43,921 bases of DNA from an uncultured Vampirovibrionales bacterium (GTDB lineage Bacteria; Cyanobacteriota; Vampirovibrionia; Vampirovibrionales; JAJTHC01), in the NCBI GenBank assembly GCA_964506805.1, contig CAZDMD010000002.1, positions 1 to 43,921 on the forward strand, read 5' to 3'. Positions 54-36,966 of the stretch are shown here, piece by piece; the first letter of the stretch is position 1; every line of letters starts with the position of its first letter. Position numbers and translations under genes: made by a program. The notes below the pieces were generated by a model, which did not search any database, had not been told where the DNA came from, and worked only from the letters and a program-made list of their open reading frames with translations.

Positions 54-118
54 TATAGCTGTTTCAATGATTTCCTGTACAATACCTATACTTTGTCGCT
101 ACAATGATTTTGGCTATA
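54..118 (+). mobile_element. Short (65 bp) deletion derivative of the TATAG-ended inverted-repeat element family
   Basis: Termini are TATAGC...GGCTATA. Internal CCTATACTTTGTCGCTACAATGATTTT matches the conserved core of the full copies at 6187, 26366, 36450 and 17786 (rc). The left arm resembles the arm at 23011. Confidence 0.6.
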
Positions 119-6180: not shown

Positions 6181-6186
6181 ATAAAG

Positions 6187-6336
6187 TATAGTCGATTAAA
6201 TATATTCCCGCACAGTGTCTATACTTTGTCGCTACGATGATTTTGTTCAGTCATGTAGGTCTATCTACACTCTTTCACAAAATAATCTAAGCTCCTCGTC
6301 TAATCTACCGTGCAGGAATATATTTAATCGACTATA
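6187..6336 (+). mobile_element. Full-length MITE-like element (150 bp), archetype copy with near-perfect ~29-bp terminal inverted repeats
   Basis: TATAGTCGATTAAATATATTCCCGCACAG ... CGTGCAGGAATATATTTAATCGACTATA, with TA on both flanks. The core is shared with the copies at 17786 (rc), 26366 and 36450. Confidence 0.85.
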
Positions 6337-6338
6337 GT

Positions 6339-6515
6339 TTGGATGTGATTAGCAGTGTCGTGTCTCTTTGCCCCAGCTGTCATAGAATGGTGGATTATGC
6401 CGAAAGTGAAACAAAAAAAGAGGCGTTACACTTTTTGCTGGATGAACGTCAAGCCCTTTTAAAACAACAAGGCTTAGAGGTGGAACTCAACGAGCTAATA
6501 CAATGCTATGCTTGA
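6339..6515 (+). pseudogene. 3' remnant of an HNH-type nuclease gene, truncated at the MITE boundary
   Basis: The frame reads LDVISSVVSLCPSCHRMVDYAESETKKEALHFLLDERQALLKQQGLEVELNELIQCYA*. LCPSCHRMVD resembles the C-terminal LCxxCHxxxD/H element of HNH nucleases. There is no start codon and no N-terminal half, and the sequence upstream is the MITE. Confidence 0.5.
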
Positions 6516-6632: not shown

Positions 6633-7718
6633 GTGTATAAAATACTTTCTCTTTTTACTGGAGCAGGAGGTATGGATATTGGCTTTCATGGTGATTTTTA
6701 TTACCTTGAACAGTTTTATCCTAAACTACCCTTTAAAACTGTTTTTGCGACAGACTATAATCAGGAAGCGATTCAGTCTTTAGAATACAATACCCAATAC
6801 TTTGATTCTAAGACCATTAAAAAACATGCCGATATAACAGAACTATCTATTTTAGATGTTCAACAAAAAGTTGGAGAAGTGGATGTTATTCTAGGCGGTT
6901 TTCCGTGTGTTACTTTTTCGGTGGTAGGTAAACAGGCAGGTATTGAAGACGGTAAAAATGGGCAACTTTACGAAAAATTTGCTCAATATGTTGAGACATT
7001 TAAGCCCAAAGTATTTGTTGCCGAAAATGTGAAGGGGATTCTTTCTGCGAATAAGGGTGAAGCGATTAAAATTATTGAAAAACGTTTTAATCTGGAAGGT
7101 TATAAATTAGAATATCGCCTCGTTAATTTTGCGGATTATGGTGTGCCACAACTCAGAGAACGTGTGGTTTTTGTAGGAACTCGTTTAGATTTAAAGGGAA
7201 ACTTTAATTTCCCTGAACCTTCTCATAAAAATAACCATATCACTGTAGAAGAAGCCTTTAAAAATCTACATCAGACTTTACCCAATAATGAACACTTAAA
7301 ACAACTGAAGAGAACTCAAGAAATTATTGCCGCTATCCCTGAAGGAGGAAATCACTTAGATTTGCCTCCTGAACTCAAAGTAAAAGGTTTGATGTCTAAC
7401 ATCTATAGACGCTTGGACTCTAAAAAGCCTTCTTATACCTTAATTGCATCAGGTGGGGGGGGGACTTGGGGCTACCATTATGCGGAAGCCCGAGCCTTAA
7501 CCAATAGAGAGCGTGCTAGAATACAAGGCTTCCCTGATGATTATGTCTTTCAAGGTAGTACCACAGAAGTACGTCGTCAAATAGGAAATGCAGTACCACC
7601 TGTAGGGATTTATCCGTTTGCCAAATCAGTCAGTCGATTTCTCCAAGAGTCCGAAAGGGAGTCTTGCGAAAGTAGGAACGTCTCAAAAGAGCCTGTTTTA
7701 GCAAAATCAATGGCATAA
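6633..7718 (+). CDS. DNA (cytosine-5)-methyltransferase
   Basis: Motif I LFTGAGGMDIGF, motif IV GGFPCVTFS, motif VI ENV, motif VIII QLRERVVFVG, motif X GNAVPP. GTG start with an AAGGA RBS. The region looks more A+T-rich than its neighbours by eye. Confidence 0.93.
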   Translation: MYKILSLFTGAGGMDIGFHGDFYYLEQFYPKLPFKTVFATDYNQEAIQSLEYNTQYFDSKTIKKHADITELSILDVQQKVGEVDVILGGFPCVTFSVVGKQAGIEDGKNGQLYEKFAQYVETFKPKVFVAENVKGILSANKGEAIKIIEKRFNLEGYKLEYRLVNFADYGVPQLRERVVFVGTRLDLKGNFNFPEPSHKNNHITVEEAFKNLHQTLPNNEHLKQLKRTQEIIAAIPEGGNHLDLPPELKVKGLMSNIYRRLDSKKPSYTLIASGGGGTWGYHYAEARALTNRERARIQGFPDDYVFQGSTTEVRRQIGNAVPPVGIYPFAKSVSRFLQESERESCESRNVSKEPVLAKSMA

Positions 7719-8809
7719 TGGTTTGAATCTAATTTGGTTATTTTAACAGAATCCACCCCTATTGAATCTAAATACGCTCGGGTAATGGGTTGAGGGTTAA
7801 GAGGATTTCTCTTAAAAACCTCATCAAGTAACCATTCCCCTAGTGCTGTATTGGGATCACTCATTAAGGCTTTAGAATTATCTTGACATAATTTACTGGA
7901 TATAAAGCTATTATTGGGTAATTGTAGTTGAAAAGAAGTCTCACGACTTGGAAAAAAGTCTGGTTTTAATTGATGAATCACTTTCGGTACAGGAATGTAA
8001 ACTTCACGATAACTACGTTTACGTCCGCCAGCACACCATTGGTTTAATGCGGATTTTTCTTGTACTTCCCCATATTGTTTAATATGCGTTGAATATAAAG
8101 GAAGGTATAGCTCATCCAACCTTTTAATAGAGGTAGAGGTGAGTATAGCAGAGTATTCAGACTTTTCAAAACATTGTTCTAAAAAAGCGAGTGGACGTTC
8201 AAGGACTTCAACTTCAAGTGTCTCAAGGGCTTCCACAGAATCGAATCGCATTTGTAAAACACTCTTTGAACGATTGAAATTGTACTCTTTTAAACCGTCT
8301 GTAAAAATGAGAGAGCGTTCATCACTTTTTTTGACTTTTAGAGAAGCTGTATGGATGACAGGCATTTCTTGTTCAAAAATTGAAAAAGCCTTAGTCGTCT
8401 TGGTGATGTAATGATAAATAAGACGCTCCAAGCCATACTGTGCTTGCGTAAGGCGAATACGTTCATTACGAGCTTCGGATAAGTATCTCATCAAATCGAG
8501 ATCGTCCAAATCTTTATAAAACTTGCGAGCGGCGTTAAATTCGGCAATTTTTTGATAACACGAGTTTTGATGCAGGAACGTTTTAATGCCCACACCAAGC
8601 CCATTGATGTTGGCATCAGATGTGCTATCATCTCGTGATGTGTTATACGCCTGAAAGGCTTCGCAAAAAACGATTTCAGAGACTCGTGAATCTAAATACA
8701 AATTGCCACTGGTTGTAAAAAGACGACTCAATTTCCCCATAATCGTCAAATAATGTTTATAACGCTTTCGTGTTTCTTCAGGTTGTTTGGTGTAAAACAT
8801 GTCTAGCAC
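7610..8809 (-). CDS. Putative type II restriction endonuclease, partner of the m5C methyltransferase (specificity unknown)
   Basis: About 396-399-aa ORF convergent with the MTase and equally A+T-rich. A possible PD-(D/E)xK-like segment is SDANINGLGVGIKTF. The likely ATG is at 8800, 12 nt after the ileS stop, with a GGGGTGAGGGG purine tract upstream. No family was recognised from memory. Confidence 0.55.
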   Translation of the reverse strand: MLDMFYTKQPEETRKRYKHYLTIMGKLSRLFTTSGNLYLDSRVSEIVFCEAFQAYNTSRDDSTSDANINGLGVGIKTFLHQNSCYQKIAEFNAARKFYKDLDDLDLMRYLSEARNERIRLTQAQYGLERLIYHYITKTTKAFSIFEQEMPVIHTASLKVKKSDERSLIFTDGLKEYNFNRSKSVLQMRFDSVEALETLEVEVLERPLAFLEQCFEKSEYSAILTSTSIKRLDELYLPLYSTHIKQYGEVQEKSALNQWCAGGRKRSYREVYIPVPKVIHQLKPDFFPSRETSFQLQLPNNSFISSKLCQDNSKALMSDPNTALGEWLLDEVFKRNPLNPQPITRAYLDSIGVDSVKITKLDSNHYAIDFAKTGSFETFLLSQDSLSDSWRNRLTDLANG

Positions 8810-17338: not shown

Positions 17339-17785
17339 TTAGACCTCAAACGCAAAAATTTCAGTTGGCTGATCGACTCCTTGAAAGGAGAGTGAAACGT
17401 CTTGCCCGAAAATGCCAAACGCATCGCCTGCTTTGAGCGTTTCGCCATTTACTTCGACGACTCCTGTGGCGACGTGAAACCAAAAACGTTGATGAGACTT
17501 CACCTCAAAGTCGATACCTTCGTTTGCCTCTAAACTCGTGCCGTAAATGCGGGCTTCTTGATAAATCTGTAACGACTGTGCTTCACCTGTACGAGACACA
17601 AGCAGCCACCACCGCCCCCTTTTTTCTTCTGCCGTAAAATAGCGTTCATCGTAAGAAGGTGTCAAACCTTGTACGTTTGGAAAAATCCAAATTTGCAGGA
17701 GGTGCAAAGGGTTTGTATCAGACGGGTTCCATTCACTATGACGAATGCTTGTGCCTGCACTCATCACTTGAACACCGCCTGCTTT
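17339..17785 (-). pseudogene. Pirin-family (YhhW/quercetinase-like) gene lacking about the first 90 codons, broken exactly at a MITE end
   Basis: KAGGVQVMSAGTSIRHSEWNPSDTNPLHLLQIWIFPNVQGLTPSYDERYF aligns with E. coli YhhW residues around PAGEFQIMSAGTGIRHSEYNPS...LYQIWIMPE. Homology starts at 17785 and the MITE starts at 17786. The N-terminal metal-binding His cluster is absent. Confidence 0.75.
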
Positions 17786-17946
17786 TATAGTCTATTAAAG
17801 ATGTTTCCGAACAGTAGACTAGACGAGGAGCTTAGATTATTTTGTGAAAAAGTTTAGAAAATGTGTAGATAGACCTACATGACTGAACAAAATCATCGTA
17901 GCGACAACGTATAGACGCTCTACAAGAAATTATGGAGGCGACTATA
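17786..17946 (-). mobile_element. Full-length MITE-like element (161 bp subfamily), inverted orientation
   Basis: TATAGTCT...CGACTATA with TA flanks. The reverse complement carries the conserved core, with 1 mismatch in 54 versus copy 6187, plus the 11-nt insertion shared with copy 36450. Confidence 0.85.
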
Positions 17947-20445: not shown

Positions 20446-23007
20446 ATGAAGTACTTCATCGCTCCTAAAACAATCTCTGCCTTTTCTTTAGTGGAAGCCT
20501 CTTTTGTAATTTCGATTTTGGCGATTCTTATTTTACCGATTATGATTCAGCAGGTAAAATTAAACGAAAGTAATCAATCACAAAACCTAGGTAGCCAAGC
20601 ACTAACGGAATCGCAAGCCTTGGTCTCTCTTGCGGATGAGACAAAACGAAACAATTATATTGAGGATATAGCCAGTAAATTAGCGGCGCTTTCTGCAAAA
20701 GGCATCGTGGTCAGTCAAAACCTCGGTGGTGAAGCAGAAATATATAATCCTGCGAATGCGTTGAATCTCGATACTTCATTTTTGGATTCCACCACTGGTG
20801 AGTATGAGTTGCATTTAGAGACGGATGCAACAATGACATTCGGTGAAAAAACGTTTTACATGCAGACTTCTGATACGGGGAACTTTATTCCTGTTTTCAA
20901 TTATGCTTGGAAATTACGAGATCGATCCTTTAATGATCTTGCCAATTTAAATGCAAATACTTCAACAAATACTTCAAGAGGATCTTTTTTAGTCAATGCC
21001 GAACTTGTTATATATCCCGTAGATTATACTCAAGTTCAGAACAATAGTAGCAGTACCGTTACGGCGAGTGCTTCGATGCCTCTTTTAAGTTTAAATAGTC
21101 TTTTTAATTTTCGAGCCAATGCCTTAATCCAAAAGGCAAAAGAAGTATCTCTACAAGCGAATCAAGTCTTACTGACGTTTACCTTTGACTTTAGTGGTGG
21201 GGCATGTCATTTCCCCGCCTCTTCTTATTATAATGAACGCCAAGGAAGAAGAGAACGCTGGGGTATGATTAACCTTATTTCTAGTGTGGATACTGATCCG
21301 TCAAGACCTGGGCGTTATTGTAGTCCTTTTTTAATGCCCAATAATACCAACAATAATGGGGCAAGTGGTACGATTACAGGATCAACGACCACCTTAAATA
21401 GTAGCGATTATGATATTTATTATAATGATGGCAGTTATCAACTCTTCTATGGGGATACGACGAATTCAAAAGTCTCTAAATTAAGTAACTTACCACTAGG
21501 TTCTCTTGCAACGGGAAGCCTGTTTTCTGGTTCCGCTCTTTTGAGTAGTACCAATTTGCCTAACACGAGTTTAACGTACTCGTTGTTAAGACCCAAGCTC
21601 GATGCAGGAGGATTATTTCTCCCCCTCACTTATACGCCCCCGACGGTGGATCCTGAGAGTTCGACATCGTATCAATTTACAAGCCCCGATGTGGGAGACG
21701 TAGACTGGCTGTCTTTAAAAGAAGTTCGATGCAATAATCAAAATTATAATGGATGGGATTCCAGTTCGAGCGATGCCTATGGAGGTCCCACAGCGGGTTC
21801 TTCATTAACCAATTATACGAAAGAGACAGGATATACAAGTTTAGATGCAGGATATACAAGTTTAGATTATTTGAATTTTCAAGCTCCTTTTAATACGAAT
21901 ATCTCACCAAGTTGCACCAGTCCAGATGAATCGTATTATCGGTTTTTACAGCGTGGGTTTGAAAGTAACACAGGGACACCCACTATTTTAAGTACCACTA
22001 ACAAAACATGGTGGGTATTAGAAGGGGCTCGTATGCCCTTTATTGCGGATTACAGCTTGGCATCTCTACCTGCTATCGGTGCGAATAGCCTCGGCTATTT
22101 GGCGCACCCCAATGATACGATTCCAGAGCCACAACGCTGGATTTCAGGTATGGAATGGCAACGTTCTTTAGCCTTAATTACGATGTTTGAATTACTTAAG
22201 AAATCTACAGTAAATACGACCAATACCTTGTACCGAGGACTTTCCGTGGATTTAATCTCTAATCAGTCAAGTGGAAACTCACAATCAAGCGTGGATGACA
22301 ATAACACAACAGGAACGATTCTTTTTAATGGGGCGGATTGGACAAAAGCGGAGTTTAATGCTATTACGAGTACAAATTTCAAAACACTGATGAAAAAACT
22401 ATACAGTATCAATCGGCGTATGCCAACAGCATCGGATCGTACGCTTGCCAAAGGGAAGCAGTATCACTTGAAAGATTCTCTTGAAACGTATGCCGAAGGG
22501 CTTCGTGATGCTGCTCAACTCAAGTGTGCAGATGCAGGTAATACGAGTAGCCACTGTAACAATAAGAAAAACTGGGAGCAATATACCTATTCTAAAATGG
22601 TGAATGTGGTCTTTATTCCAGGTGAAATGTCCGCCGAAGTAAAACATGTGTGGCACAACAGTAGTTATATTAATCAATTTATATATAATTCAACTAGCAC
22701 GAATGATGCCTTTGATCAGGACACCATTGTGAATGCCATCGACGATATAGGCAATAAAGCGTTTAGAAAAAAACAGGTGTATTTGTTTGTGATTCATGGC
22801 AAAGCAAAGCCTTTTTTAATCAGTCATTTCAGCAATAGGGTCATTCCCAAGTTTGAAAGAGAAGACTTTATTGCGAAGCTGGTTGTCGTCGATAATTTAC
22901 AGTCTTTTGCAACCGATTATGTGCCGAATGTACTCATTCCTGAACTGACCAGTTATACCACTGGTGAAAAAACAGAGTCTAATTTCTATAATATAGGTAA
23001 TGAGTAA
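20446..23007 (+). CDS. Very large (853 aa) Asn/Ser/Thr-rich protein with a prepilin-like N-terminus
   Basis: A short basic leader MKYFIAPKTISA is followed by FSLVEASFVISILAILILPIMI. This resembles the type IV pilin class III signal (G/A)|F(T/S)L(I/V)E plus a hydrophobic helix. The rest has no recognised domain. The gene looks A+T-rich by eye. Confidence 0.6.
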   Translation: MKYFIAPKTISAFSLVEASFVISILAILILPIMIQQVKLNESNQSQNLGSQALTESQALVSLADETKRNNYIEDIASKLAALSAKGIVVSQNLGGEAEIYNPANALNLDTSFLDSTTGEYELHLETDATMTFGEKTFYMQTSDTGNFIPVFNYAWKLRDRSFNDLANLNANTSTNTSRGSFLVNAELVIYPVDYTQVQNNSSSTVTASASMPLLSLNSLFNFRANALIQKAKEVSLQANQVLLTFTFDFSGGACHFPASSYYNERQGRRERWGMINLISSVDTDPSRPGRYCSPFLMPNNTNNNGASGTITGSTTTLNSSDYDIYYNDGSYQLFYGDTTNSKVSKLSNLPLGSLATGSLFSGSALLSSTNLPNTSLTYSLLRPKLDAGGLFLPLTYTPPTVDPESSTSYQFTSPDVGDVDWLSLKEVRCNNQNYNGWDSSSSDAYGGPTAGSSLTNYTKETGYTSLDAGYTSLDYLNFQAPFNTNISPSCTSPDESYYRFLQRGFESNTGTPTILSTTNKTWWVLEGARMPFIADYSLASLPAIGANSLGYLAHPNDTIPEPQRWISGMEWQRSLALITMFELLKKSTVNTTNTLYRGLSVDLISNQSSGNSQSSVDDNNTTGTILFNGADWTKAEFNAITSTNFKTLMKKLYSINRRMPTASDRTLAKGKQYHLKDSLETYAEGLRDAAQLKCADAGNTSSHCNNKKNWEQYTYSKMVNVVFIPGEMSAEVKHVWHNSSYINQFIYNSTSTNDAFDQDTIVNAIDDIGNKAFRKKQVYLFVIHGKAKPFLISHFSNRVIPKFEREDFIAKLVVVDNLQSFATDYVPNVLIPELTSYTTGEKTESNFYNIGNE

Positions 23008-23010
23008 AAA

Positions 23011-23048
23011 TATAGTCTTTTCAATAATTTCCCGTCCAGTGTCTATAC
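23011..23048 (+). mobile_element. Truncated MITE copy (left arm plus the first 8 nt of the core)
   Basis: TATAGTCTTTTCAATAATTTCCCGTCCAGTGTCTATAC occupies almost the whole 43-nt gap between the stop at 23005-23007 (+) and the trpC stop at 23051-23053 (-). Confidence 0.6.
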
Positions 23049-23050
23049 GT

Positions 23051-23800
23051 TTAAAACGTCTTCATCAAAGCCGTGCCAATGAGTATCGCATGAGCCAAAT
23101 TTTTCATCGCTTTGGCTTCTTCAAAGGAAGCAAATCCACTGGCGGAAATAATCAGCGTGCCGTCAGGGCAAAGCGGAGCCAACTGCGTCGTCGTTTCCAT
23201 TTCAATTTCAAAGGTGGATAAATTACGGTTGTTAATCAGAATAATCGGCGGACGCACGAGTAAGGCTCGTTTGAGTTCGGCTTCGTTTTGCACTTCCACC
23301 ACAGGACTTAAGCCATAACTACGAATCGCTTCAAACAAGCTCACATACTCAAAATCATCGAGGCATTTCATAATGAGTAACGCTGCATCCGCTCCACTGG
23401 TAACGGCTAGTGCTACTTGGTACAAGTCGATGATGAAATCCTTGCACAGAACAGGTTTGTCTGTGAGTGTTTTCACCTGTTCCAGTAAATCAAAGCCACC
23501 GCCAAAGTAGTGAGCATCCGTCAAGACGGAAATCGCAGAACAACTTTCGTTATACGCCCCGATGATTTTCGCCACATCAGGGGTTTCTTGCAAAACCCCT
23601 GCACTCGGCGACTTGGGCTTCAATTCCCCAATGAGGTGGAGCGAATCCGTTGCTTCACGCAAGGCACGCTCAAAACGAAAGGCATCATCGTCAGGCTTGG
23701 TCTTGGCGACATCGAGCCAATAATCAATCGGCGTTTGGCGTTGCCAGTCGGCGATTTCTCTTCGTTTGTGAGCGACAATTTCATCGAGGATTGTGAACAT
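23051..23800 (-). CDS. trpC: Indole-3-glycerol phosphate synthase
   Basis: ILDEIVAHKRREI, ELKPKSPSAG, SVLTD..YFGG, LCKDFIID.YQV, GADA.LLI, VEV.NE.EL, LINNRNL.TFE. Confidence 0.9.
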   Translation of the reverse strand: MFTILDEIVAHKRREIADWQRQTPIDYWLDVAKTKPDDDAFRFERALREATDSLHLIGELKPKSPSAGVLQETPDVAKIIGAYNESCSAISVLTDAHYFGGGFDLLEQVKTLTDKPVLCKDFIIDLYQVALAVTSGADAALLIMKCLDDFEYVSLFEAIRSYGLSPVVEVQNEAELKRALLVRPPIILINNRNLSTFEIEMETTTQLAPLCPDGTLIISASGFASFEEAKAMKNLAHAILIGTALMKTF

Positions 23801-26365: not shown

Positions 26366-26516
26366 TATAGTCGATTAAATATATTCTCGCACAGTGTCTA
26401 TACTTTGTCGCTACGATAATTTTGTTCAGTCATGTAGGTCTATCTACACTCCGTTCACAAAATAATCTAGGCTCCTCGTCTAGCCATCTCTACAAAAAAC
26501 TCTGAAAACGACTATA
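26366..26516 (+). mobile_element. Full-length MITE-like element (151 bp)
   Basis: The left arm and core are nearly identical to copy 6187 (1 mismatch in the 54-nt core). The right arm is different (CCATCTCTACAAAAAACTCTGAAAACGACTATA). TA flanks. Confidence 0.85.
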
Positions 26517-26758
26517 AAACACTATAGAATCAAAAACCGTAGACAGAAAAAGCCTTTTAAGAGGCTTTTGAAAACCTTTCTGCACGAAATTGGATTTTCT
26601 TAAACGGCTTGTAACAAAGTATTACAGAAAATAAATTCAAACCTTTCTTCATACTTTATTAAATCACATAGGCTTCTAAATGATTTCCATAATCAACCCT
26701 AGACTTTACCACCATTTAGACTTTAGAGAAAAAACAGTAAGGACATAAGAACAATATA

Positions 26759-27421
26759 ATGAATATGATTAACCCACAGTTTTCGGTTCCATCGCAATCT
26801 CAGTTTCAAGGGCCTTTACCTCCTTCTAGTAGTTTGGTAAATGTGTCCGCTAGTTTACAGTTGCCTCAAAGCATCAGCCGAGTCGCTTCTGCCTTATCTC
26901 GTGATTTAGCGGGTCAAATCGCTTTATTTACAGGAAACCCTGGTTTATATGCGACCGAGTATTCTTTAGCTTCCGTTATCGGAGCAGCCGTTACACCTGG
27001 ATTCAGTCTTTCTTCTTGGGGTACTCCTGAGCAAGGTGGACTGGCAAGTAACCCAACGACAGCCAGCTTCCCTGGATTCTTCCAGCCAATTCCTACCTTC
27101 CCTTCCCTTCGTGGCGATGTGGGTACCAATTCGCAAGGTTTCCAAGACCCGCGCTTTATTCCTCAGGGCTGGGTTGGAGCTCCAAGTGGCTTTATGGGAG
27201 ATATTTATGGTGGCGGTTATGTCAACCAAGCCCCACAAGGCTTTGGTCAGCCTCAAGGCTACGGTGTGCCTCAACAACAGTACGGTTATGCCCCGCAGCA
27301 ACAGTATGGCTACCCGCCTCAACAACAGTATGGCTATACTCCACAGCAGGGTTATGCAGATCCTTATGCACAACAGAGCTACGGTGGGTCTTACAACCCA
27401 ATGCCTTACGCACCGTACTAA
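26759..27421 (+). CDS. Low-complexity Gln/Tyr/Gly/Pro-rich protein with PQQQYGY repeats
   Basis: 220-aa ORF followed by an intrinsic terminator. The C-terminal third is QGYGVPQQQYGYAPQQQYGYPPQQQYGYTPQQGY.... The long overlapping ORFs in other frames are attributed to the repeats. Confidence 0.55.
   Translation: MNMINPQFSVPSQSQFQGPLPPSSSLVNVSASLQLPQSISRVASALSRDLAGQIALFTGNPGLYATEYSLASVIGAAVTPGFSLSSWGTPEQGGLASNPTTASFPGFFQPIPTFPSLRGDVGTNSQGFQDPRFIPQGWVGAPSGFMGDIYGGGYVNQAPQGFGQPQGYGVPQQQYGYAPQQQYGYPPQQQYGYTPQQGYADPYAQQSYGGSYNPMPYAPY
27269..27340 (+). repeat. 3 x 24-nt in-frame tandem repeat encoding PQQQYGY(A/P/T)
   Basis: The units at 27269-27292, 27293-27316 and 27317-27340 differ mainly at synonymous positions. 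Confidence 0.85.
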
Positions 27422-28785: not shown

Positions 28786-28845
28786 TATAGTCGTTTTCAG
28801 AGTTTTTTGTAGAGATGGCTAAACGAGGATCTTAGATTATAGTCG
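28786..28845 (-). mobile_element. Truncated MITE copy (right-arm module, inverted) bounded by two direct TATAGTCG termini
   Basis: 28786-28840 matches the reverse complement of the right arm of copy 26366 plus GACGAGG.GCTTAGATTAT. A second TATAGTCG at 28838-28845 lies 4 nt from the carB stop codon. Confidence 0.6.
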
Positions 28846-32214: not shown

Positions 32215-32248
32215 ATAGTCTTTTCAGAAGTTTTCTGAAAAGACTATA
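32215..32248. mobile_element. Miniature palindrome made of two MITE termini back to back
   Basis: ATAGTCTTTTCAGAA-gtt-TTCTGAAAAGACTAT forms perfect 15-bp arms. The arms match the right arm of copy 36450 and the left arm at 23011. Confidence 0.6.
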
Positions 32249-33874: not shown

Positions 33875-33907
33875 CCCTCTCCCTTAGGGAGAGGGCTGGG
33901 GTGAGGG
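33875..33907 (+). repeat. 33-bp hairpin repeat CCCTCTCCCTTAGGGAGAGGGCTGGGGTGAGGG
   Basis: A 9-bp perfect stem with a 3-nt loop. A second, near-identical direct copy lies at 34400-34432. Confidence 0.85.
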
Positions 33908-34069
33908 ATGCAAGAAGCCTTAATAAAACTGGTGCTTCCCTCATCTTAACAAGACAAGATCTAATCTTTAAAATTATTTTACTTTTAGTTTAACGTATTG
34001 TAGTGTAAAATCAAAAATAAATTATAAAATTAAAAATAAATCATTCAAATCATTTGAAAGGCAAGCCTC

Positions 34070-34399: not shown

Positions 34400-34432
34400 C
34401 CCTCTCCCTTAGGGAGAGGGCTAGGGTGAGGG
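34400..34432 (+). repeat. Second copy of the 33-bp hairpin repeat (CCCTCTCCCTTAGGGAGAGGGCTAGGGTGAGGG)
   Basis: One mismatch versus 33875-33907. It starts 10 nt after the gatC stop and could act as a terminator-like hairpin, but no T-run follows. Confidence 0.85.
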
Positions 34433-34476
34433 AGTCTAATTCACATTCACTTTATTGCTTTTCTAAGGAATTCAAG

Positions 34477-36449: not shown

Positions 36450-36610
36450 TATAGTCGATTAAATATATTCCCGTACAGTGCCTATACTTTGTCGCTACAC
36501 TGATTTTATTCAGTCATGTAGGTCTATCTACACATTTTCTAAACTTTTTCATAAAATCATTTAAGCTCCTCGTCTAGCCTATTGTTCAGAAAACTCTTGA
36601 AAAGACTATA
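36450..36610 (+). mobile_element. Full-length MITE-like element (161 bp subfamily)
   Basis: TATAGTCGATTAAATATATTCCCGTACAG...AAAAGACTATA with TA flanks and 4 mismatches in the 54-nt core versus copy 6187. It ends 2 nt from the stop codon of the minus-strand ORF 36613-36966. Confidence 0.85.
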
Positions 36611-36612
36611 AT

Positions 36613-36966
36613 TTAGATTCCTTCGTAAAATTGGCGGCCTGTGTTTGGGTTGATCAAACCCTCAAAGATACTATTCGTTTGATTCGGGTTCGCATTGAAC
36701 ATACGTACTTCAGGAGCTAAATTTTCTATACCTCGTATTAGATCTTCTGGGTTTTTAGGACTGATTGAAGGTTCTCCCACTAAGTCTAAAGCAGTCGCCA
36801 ACATCCTTGCTCCTCTTTGTCCGTCGCTTAAATACCCAACTGTGCCTGTAAATACCCTCAGTGTAGCCGCTGTTAATGCTTTTTCAAACATGCTGACAGT
36901 TCCCCCAAAATTGCTTGTGTGATGATGTGATTGATTCGGATGATGCCCCATCAATATAAAAACCAT
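36613..36966 (-). CDS. Hypothetical protein (117 aa)
   Basis: ORF only. His-rich N-terminus and no recognised motif. Confidence 0.35.
   Translation of the reverse strand: MVFILMGHHPNQSHHHTSNFGGTVSMFEKALTAATLRVFTGTVGYLSDGQRGARMLATALDLVGEPSISPKNPEDLIRGIENLAPEVRMFNANPNQTNSIFEGLINPNTGRQFYEGI

Follow-up and report, generated by a model that had tools for sequence, protein, structure and literature searches.

Short repeats with matching ends are scattered through this part of a Vampirovibrionales genome, which raises the question of what kind of repeat they are and what could have placed them there. The window, by which we mean the whole 43,921-nt stretch of DNA analyzed here, carries ordinary chromosomal genes (those for FlgN/FlgK, IleRS, CarB, MnmA, TrpC, GAPDH, an SNF2 helicase, a restriction-modification pair and others). 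A first-pass annotation had proposed that the repeats are non-autonomous inverted-repeat elements of the IS630/Tc1-mariner type. Our analysis supports this proposal through the duplication of a TA dinucleotide on insertion and through element ends that resemble those of ISY100. We consider it very probable that the family consists of non-coding MITEs of ~146-157 bp, reading TAGT...ACTA, that are mobilized in trans by an IS630/Tc1-mariner-type transposase.

Full copies and derivatives in the window

A repeat finder recovered the four full copies and the four derivatives listed by the first-pass annotation (Table 1). We also searched the window with an nhmmer profile that combined 39 full copies from other genomes with the four from the window (43 in all). 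In this search the full copies scored with E-values of 5e-43 to 4e-40, and three of the derivatives were significant. The fourth derivative, a palindrome made of repeat tips only, is too short to score and fell below nhmmer significance. A 25-nt part of it can pair with the end of the 36450 copy at 92% complementarity, and it represents a minimal derivative or else a remnant.

Table 1 Elements of the repeat family in the window. Each is given with its position, strand, length in nt, matched positions of the profile and nhmmer E-value.
Element	Position	Strand	Length	Profile positions	E-value	Remark
Full copy	6187..6336	+	150	1-150	5.4e-43	Length includes the flanking TA dinucleotides
Full copy	26366..26516	+	151		1e-42	
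Full copy, 161-nt subfamily	36450..36610	+	161		4.3e-40	
Full copy, 161-nt subfamily, inverted	17786..17946	-	161		2.1e-41	
Left-half derivative	54..118	+		1-59	2e-9	nhmmer match at 54-112
Left terminal-repeat fragment	23011..23051	+		1-41	4.7e-6	
Right-arm fragment	28786..28845	-		96-150	3.5e-7	nhmmer match at 28786-28840
Palindrome	32215..32248	not assigned	34			Two terminal repeat tips, head to head: ATAGTCTTTTCAGAAGTTTTCTGAAAAGACTATA

When aligned, the four full copies show 84% mean column identity, and the centre TTCAGTCATGTAGGTCTATCTACA is invariant in all four. The alignment also bears out the two length subfamilies noted earlier, with an 11-nt indel dividing the 150/151-nt copies from the 161-nt copies (in the 36450 copy the internal insertion reads ATTTTCTAAAC). 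The 17786 copy is 85% complementary to 36450-36611 over 162 nt. Paired terminal inverted repeats of ~30 nt, TATAGTCGATTAAATATATTCCCGCACAGTG and its complement, bound the 6187 copy, and a repeat finder paired its arms 6183-6216 and 6307-6340 over 34 nt with 91% complementarity. The 26366 copy has mosaic ends, that is, two different sequence types, and its right arm (26462-26516) is 95% complementary over 55 nt to the fragment at 28786-28840. TATAGTC...GACTATA ends had been ascribed to all copies. The fragment 54-118 departs from this: it has TATAGCT/GGCTATA ends and is closed by the short end GGCTATATA. Its identity with the left arms of the full copies is 78-81%.

The end of the 36450 copy and the stop codon of the convergent ORF 36613-36966 lie 2 nt apart, and the fragment at 23011 occupies the gap between the convergent ORFs 20446-23007 and 23051-23800. 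In the right-arm fragment, a second TATAGTC is found at 28838, right before the carB stop codon. The family adds up to ~0.8-0.9 kb of the 43.9-kb window, or roughly 2%, a density comparable to that of the Correia elements in Neisseria. The heptamer TATAGTC occurs 15 times in the window, compared with 2.74 +/- 1.64 times in shuffled sequences, and 12 of these 15 occurrences fall within family elements. The repeats are not an assembly artefact, because an independent ENA assembly (L080) carries the 26366 copy within a 4.65-kb stretch that is 99.96% identical. With a length of only 150-161 nt, the elements fall within the small size of MITEs (under ~300 bp), have no coding capacity and leave no room for a transposase; in the 17786 copy, reverse-strand frame 1 contains stops within its translated part (17786-17848).

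Several other features were observed in the window. Directly 3' of the 26366 copy, positions 26517-26530 read AAACACTATAG, the tip of an end type seen frequently in other genomes; this is probably the stump of a neighbouring, older insertion. The flgN-flgK spacer contains at 1351-1368 a remnant that resembles the tip of a terminal inverted repeat (GACTAAAAAGACTATA, with TATAGTC on the minus strand). On its own this remnant is not significant; the same spacer holds a full copy in another species (L061). Positions 1-30, just upstream of the fragment 54-118, match six other loci and represent another dispersed repeat. A palindromic 34-nt direct repeat (33875-33908 and 34400-34433, 97% identical, CCCTCTCCCTTAGGGAGAGGG...) is a separate short repeat family, and comparable GGGAGG/CCCTCC hairpins flank elements in other loci. 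The ORF 26759-27421, which has no Pfam match, includes a 24-nt tandem repeat of ~4 units (27268-27363, units 73-75% alike) whose peptide, as read from the DNA, is rich in Q, Y, G and P. Finally, a gene for a C-5 cytosine DNA methylase (6633-7718) and a minus-strand ORF (7610-8809) overlap tail to tail; the ORF carries an NgoFVII-type restriction-enzyme C-terminal domain. The region 6633-8809, which begins ~300 bp downstream of the 6187 copy, is likely a type II restriction-modification pair.

Dispersal across Vampirovibrionales genomes

Whether the element might be confined to this locus had been a concern of the first-pass annotation, and it proved to be dispersed and present in many copies. 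In a scan that covered one genome per species, the exact 20-nt core was present in at least 74 stretches from at least 6 MAG species of Vampirovibrionales, a group of Melainabacteria whose members are related to cyanobacteria and do not photosynthesize. There were 81 core matches among the matches listed, and the majority were elements of 150 nt with TATAG...CTATA ends. The usual form in other genomes is 150 nt long and reads TATAGTATTTTAAATAATTTCCCCTACAGTG...CTACTGTACGGAAAACTCTTTAAAACACTATA, and terminal inverted repeats of ~30 nt are present in the consensus of every genome. Also among the matches listed, two core-bearing contigs came from a MAG labelled Gammaproteobacteria and one further contig from a gut MAG. 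In MAG JBEISK01, which bears the Gammaproteobacteria label, both L022 and L067 carry the MITE. The mnmA region of L022 is 76% identical to the window; therefore this MAG, or at least these two contigs, is probably of the Vampirovibrionales lineage. Several contigs stop inside the MITE repeats.

The window is not itself one of the related loci; at the DNA level, its genes are 66-82% identical to theirs, which suggests that it comes from a Vampirovibrionales-like member of the Melainabacteria. Within other genomes, the copies are 92-98% identical, which points to recent bursts there, whereas the four copies of the window are only 81% identical to each other. Because of this low likeness, together with mismatched ends and the presence of four fragments, the window copies appear to be older relics.

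Insertion duplicates a TA dinucleotide

The flanking TA had been read in the first-pass annotation as a target-site duplication, to be confirmed by comparing orthologous intergenic regions. Each copy by itself is compatible with the TA being a duplication or a part of the element, and only an empty site can decide between the two. The comparison gave no empty site across species, either in the flgN-flgK spacer (window versus L061) or downstream of mnmA (window versus L022), where the intergenic DNA is too diverged (species at 66-76% identity). Exact-protein look-ups likewise revealed no empty sites for the window copies in same-species contigs, which had the same insertions or ended in the repeat. 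As the orthologous spacers were too diverged and the same-species contigs already filled, we used nested insertions in the loci of relatives as a source of empty sites.

In L054, a copy splits another repeat (TTCTGT-TA-(TAGT..ACTA)-TA-TGTAGG), and six unsplit copies of this host repeat read TTCTGTTATGTAGG, with a single TA (TTCTGT-TA-TGTAGG). A third repeat is split in L040 (GGTG-TA-(..)-TA-TTTTTCGA), and its unsplit counterpart in L010 reads GGTGTATTTTTCGA, also with a single TA (GGTG-TA-TTTTTCGA). In both cases the filled site differs from the empty one by TAGT...ACTA and a second TA. Consequently, the element proper is TAGT...ACTA, and these two pairs of filled and empty sites show that the family duplicates TA on insertion, as first proposed. 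L045 was considered as a third nested insertion and was left uncounted because its host sequence is itself mosaic. TA is present on both sides of every intact copy among the matches listed. Outside this TA, the flanks of 37 copies revealed no matching bases and no wider target motif.

This result bears on a different class of mobile repeat. The elements are found in clusters and nested arrangements with other repeats, and their centre holds a short GTAG-headed hairpin, as might be expected of a REP/BIME palindrome moved by a RAYT (Y1) transposase or of a palindrome-associated element derived from IS200/IS605. In neither class, however, are there long terminal inverted repeats or a duplicated target (PMC2817692). 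The family described here has terminal inverted repeats of ~30 nt and duplicates TA, as shown above, and in its sister families GTAG is changed to GTAC. We therefore regard an origin of the REP/RAYT or IS200/IS605 kind as extremely improbable.

Element ends resemble those of ISY100

Strict TA duplication combined with inverted repeats of ~30 bp is the signature of IS630/Tc1-mariner transposases (PMC2170065, PMC2817692). A biochemically characterized member of this group is ISY100 (ISTcSa) from Synechocystis PCC 6803, which inserts at TA and requires just ~24-30 bp of its ends in cis (PMC2170065). For the comparison we took the right end of ISY100, taTAGTAGTTTCAAATAAAG, as ta-TAGTAGTTTCAAATAAAGCTGAGA from an oligonucleotide in PMC2170065, and its left end, taTAGTCATTTCAATTAACG, as ta-TAGTCATTTCAATTAACGATGAGA from the pSYSA copy.

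The MITE ends are identical to both ISY100 ends at 12-13 of the 16 outer nucleotides, for example in TAGTAGTTTCAATAAT (L058) and TAGTCTTTTCAATAAT (window, 23011). By our own count, the two ends of ISY100 match each other at the same level (13/16). In the fragment at 23011, the first 13 nt after TA, TAGTCTTTTCAAT, agree with the ISY100 left end at 12 positions. The family thus shares with ISY100 the TA duplication and termini of the form TA-TAGT(A/C)(G/A)TTTCAA... over the outer ~12-16 nt. When the shared TAGT is set aside, this likeness is only modestly significant by a rough binomial estimate, and no similarity was seen inward of the outer ~16-18 nt. In contrast to ISY100, a 947-bp autonomous element with a 282-aa transposase, the window elements encode nothing. 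As ISY100 needs only its 24-30-bp ends in cis, a 150-bp element with such ends would be a competent passenger.

The first-pass annotation had stated that the window has no transposase ORF, and this was confirmed: no transposase domain was detected in its 27 larger ORFs, nor in the six genes with precomputed Pfam hits. The same annotation had suggested searching the genome for a transposase flanked by the same termini; the window, ~530 kb of related loci and one metagenome pattern scan yielded no transposase. A tblastn search with the ISY100 transposase gave no match in the window or in the related loci. ORF clustering over these ~530 kb returned no multi-copy ORF, and no solitary MITE end running into an ORF was seen in the related loci. 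A long-range pair of ends in L041, considered as a possible autonomous element, was rejected, as it consists of a SIMPL-like gene between two MITEs. The metagenome scan, in which JGI data were searched for the ends without the MITE interior (IUPAC 'not-MITE' positions), returned only an 85-nt deletion derivative. No autonomous element was present in viral contigs, and plasmid and phage look-ups gave no matches. We infer that the gene for the cognate transposase lies, or once lay, in another part of these genomes; judging from the target site and the terminal nucleotides, this enzyme would probably belong to the IS630/Tc1-mariner family.

Our model suggests that an IS630/Tc1-mariner-type DDE transposase acts in trans, with the enzyme of Synechocystis ISY100 as its closest counterpart. 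This transposase would bind the inverted repeats and cut at the ends of the element, which would then integrate at a TA dinucleotide. Gap repair would double this TA, giving rise to the arrangement TA-TAGT...ACTA-TA.

Since no transposase was found, and the assignment comes from the TA duplication and the outer 16 nt alone, we also considered a MITE moved by another DDE family that makes 2-bp duplications, for example one of the IS5/IS427 group or an IS30-like one. Against this, TA is what was duplicated in both clean comparisons with empty sites, TA lies on both sides of every intact copy among the matches listed, and the ends match ISY100, an IS630-family member, about as well as the two ends of ISY100 match mutually. 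In addition, reviews treat TA-flanked, TATA-ended bacterial MITEs as derived from IS630 (PMC2817692, PMC4853749). Another DDE family is thus quite unlikely, and an IS630/Tc1-mariner-type enzyme is the mobilizer that we favour.

A new family of a known kind of MITE

The repeat had not been recognized as a described family. At the family level this still stands: the literature that could be searched describes no MITE from Vampirovibrionales, Vampirovibrio or Melainabacteria. It does not stand for the kind of element, as TA-flanked, TATAG-ended, IS630-derived MITEs are an established class (PMC2817692, PMC2229807, PMC4853749). Both Correia and RUP elements have already been classed as IS630-derived MITEs (PMC2817692, PMC2229807).

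The Correia elements (CREE/NEMIS) of Neisseria resemble the window family in many respects. They are non-coding, ~105-155 bp long, present in hundreds of copies and mostly intergenic, and their transcripts form long hairpins. They also share the TA target, the TATAGT tips and inverted repeats of ~26-30 nt that occur in mosaic variants (PMC2649163, PMC5039591). The enzyme that mobilizes them has never been identified (PMC2649163). At the sequence level, the right end of the 6187 copy matches the Correia repeat at 23 of 29 nt, which makes it similar and not the same repeat, and the common form of our family matches it only at 12 of the 14 outer nucleotides. When the interior was compared with that of a real gonococcal CREE, the local alignment score was 12-14, as against 12.8 +/- 2.3 for shuffled sequences. 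The unrelated interiors led us to reject membership of the Correia family. The hosts also belong to different phyla. The real Correia elements came from two PLSDB entries, NZ_CP119140.1 and NZ_CP119142.1, which are complete 2.17-Mb Neisseria gonorrhoeae chromosomes filed as plasmids.

By their descriptions, two other families are also similar. RUP of Streptococcus pneumoniae is a ~107-bp MITE with a TA target and IS630-like ends, and it is often inserted into other repeats or insertion sequences (PMC2229807). Unlike the window family, for which no parent was found, RUP has a candidate parent, IS630-Spn1, in the same genome; in sequence, RUP and the window family are probably unrelated. The MITEs of Candidatus Thiomargarita nelsonii, a different host, have TATAG at both ends, form large hairpins, are Correia-like and are probably derived from IS630 (PMC4853749). 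We conclude that the repeats of the window are a new family of the known IS630/Tc1-mariner-derived MITE kind, comparable to Correia and RUP.

A conserved interior shared with sister repeat families

Across genomes, the terminal hexamer of the element is conserved at ~100%, the interior at 91-97%, and positions 7-30 and 121-144 at 62-87%. The subterminal positions, where such transposases bind, are thus the least conserved part (62-76% identity against 91-93% for the interior), which is the reverse of what MITEs usually show. The copies of the window also combine ends of different types. In the related loci, at least four repeat families share the central core TTATGTAS-GTCTNT-STACAC and differ in their inner arms (members occur in L016, L017, L024, L031, L037, L039, L041, L051, L054, L055, L057, L063 and others). 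A paired switch from G..C to C..G preserves a small stem in this core. These families share the inner modules TTGTCGCTACGATT / TCTAGGCTCC, and their ends are of several kinds (TATAGT.., TATAGCC.., ATACCAATTAAACG...TGGTAT and TAGGTAGTGTCGACA..). Left/right chimeras of these families join at the core. No obvious TA duplication was seen for the sister repeats of the ATACCA...TGGTAT type.

Two further hairpins were observed in related sequences. In a MAG labelled Alphaproteobacteria from roe deer caecum (L044, 4700-4800), a ~90-nt hairpin with TAGTA-type tips has an identical 30-nt centre, TCAGTCATGTAGGTCTATCTACACTCCTTC, flanked by stems that bear no relation to those of the window family. In L034 (~6300-6350), the left half of a copy recurs on the right as a perfect reverse complement (..TTGTTCAGTCATGTAGGTCTATCTACATGACTGAACAA..), in place of the normal right half. 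This symmetrized copy indicates that copying from arm to arm can produce seemingly compensatory arms without selection.

One way to view these observations is that the family is one branch of a modular Vampirovibrionales repeat superfamily, with a shared core and modules, varied inner arms and at least three kinds of terminus, in which the core has a role of its own. If true, the core would be a functional or recombinogenic site for a host factor, a second enzyme or the transposition machinery. Such a role would explain why the interior (91-97%) is better kept than the genes (66-82%) or the transposase-binding ends (62-87%). This reading applies only if the pattern is more than common descent and ordinary recombination, and we put it forward as a tentative and rather doubtful idea. 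Instead, we propose, as our preferred reading, that the interior reflects a conserved active source lineage, possibly exchanged between co-occurring lineages, which recombines with sister families.

Selfish DNA or a functional module

Correia elements provide promoters, IHF-binding sites and sites of RNase III processing. Similarly, the conserved interior of our family could be a functional module, such as a structured RNA, a hairpin or a protein-binding site, that has been co-opted. Several observations point in this direction. Positions 31-120 are 91-93% identical between the window and genomes whose genes are only 66-82% identical to it. The core recurs in at least four families with different arms and undergoes a stem-preserving switch, and the 30-nt centre lies between unrelated stems in L044. 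The whole element folds as one long hairpin with z-scores of -6.7 to -11.5 (for the 6187 copy, -9.4 on the plus and -11.5 on the minus strand), although a strong hairpin is expected of any long inverted repeat. Finally, the common form has one outward-facing promoter-like site with 10 of 12 matches.

Single copies, in contrast, show no visible constraint. The orthologous copies in L018 and L032 differ at 5 of 150 positions (3.3%), all 5 in the interior, and their flanks are 94-95% identical (5-6% diverged). This divergence is close to the flank rate and suggests that single copies drift roughly neutrally. Among the matches listed, the orientation of copies relative to neighbouring genes shows no bias (11 versus 17). 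The window copies have no promoter-like or terminator-like site in common. Rfam gave no matches at the gathering threshold, and the best sub-threshold hit, a plant miRNA hairpin with 24.5 bits against a threshold of 100, is noise. As described above for L034, symmetrical arms can arise by copying, with no need for selection.

Two specific candidates were also rejected. An NtcA/CRP-type operator (TGTA-N8-TACA) at the centre does not agree with the asymmetric decay seen in the diverged family, where conservation of the left half-site falls to 0.62-0.71 and that of the spacer is 0.92-1.0; moreover, only 3 sites of this type occur outside the repeats, compared with ~11 expected. Selection at the RNA level had been considered from the strand asymmetry in folding energy (-58.7 versus -38.8 kcal/mol). 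This asymmetry is not significant, because only 4 independent columns drive the difference, and the one-strand excess of G-U-compatible mismatches likewise comes from only 4 columns. On balance, a co-opted functional interior is unlikely, and we favour the view that the family behaves as selfish DNA.

In agreement with the first-pass annotation, which had placed all copies between genes, none of the 81 copies among the matches listed lies within an ORF. This statement carries one caveat for the window: the inverted copy at 17786 sits exactly at the break of a 5'-truncated gene. The pirin-family ORF 17339-17785 (minus strand) is truncated precisely at the edge of this copy. Its frame (..IKAGGVQVMSAGTSIRHSEWN..) is open right up to the repeat, and only positions 81-108 of the 108 of the Pirin domain are left. 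The far end of the copy lies 77 nt from the next gene. The truncation looks like an insertion-associated deletion, and the presence of a copy at the break indicates that the family has affected genes locally.

Implications

MITE repeats of this kind break short-read assemblies, which limits the quality of MAGs in the Vampirovibrionales lineage. Near-identical copies in the MAGs of the Lake Mendota time series would permit direct tests of ongoing transposition. Beyond this lineage, the family provides a second, independent system with Correia-like ends and a TA target. If a complete genome or a long-read assembly reveals an IS630-type partner, this enzyme could inform the question of what mobilizes the Correia elements.
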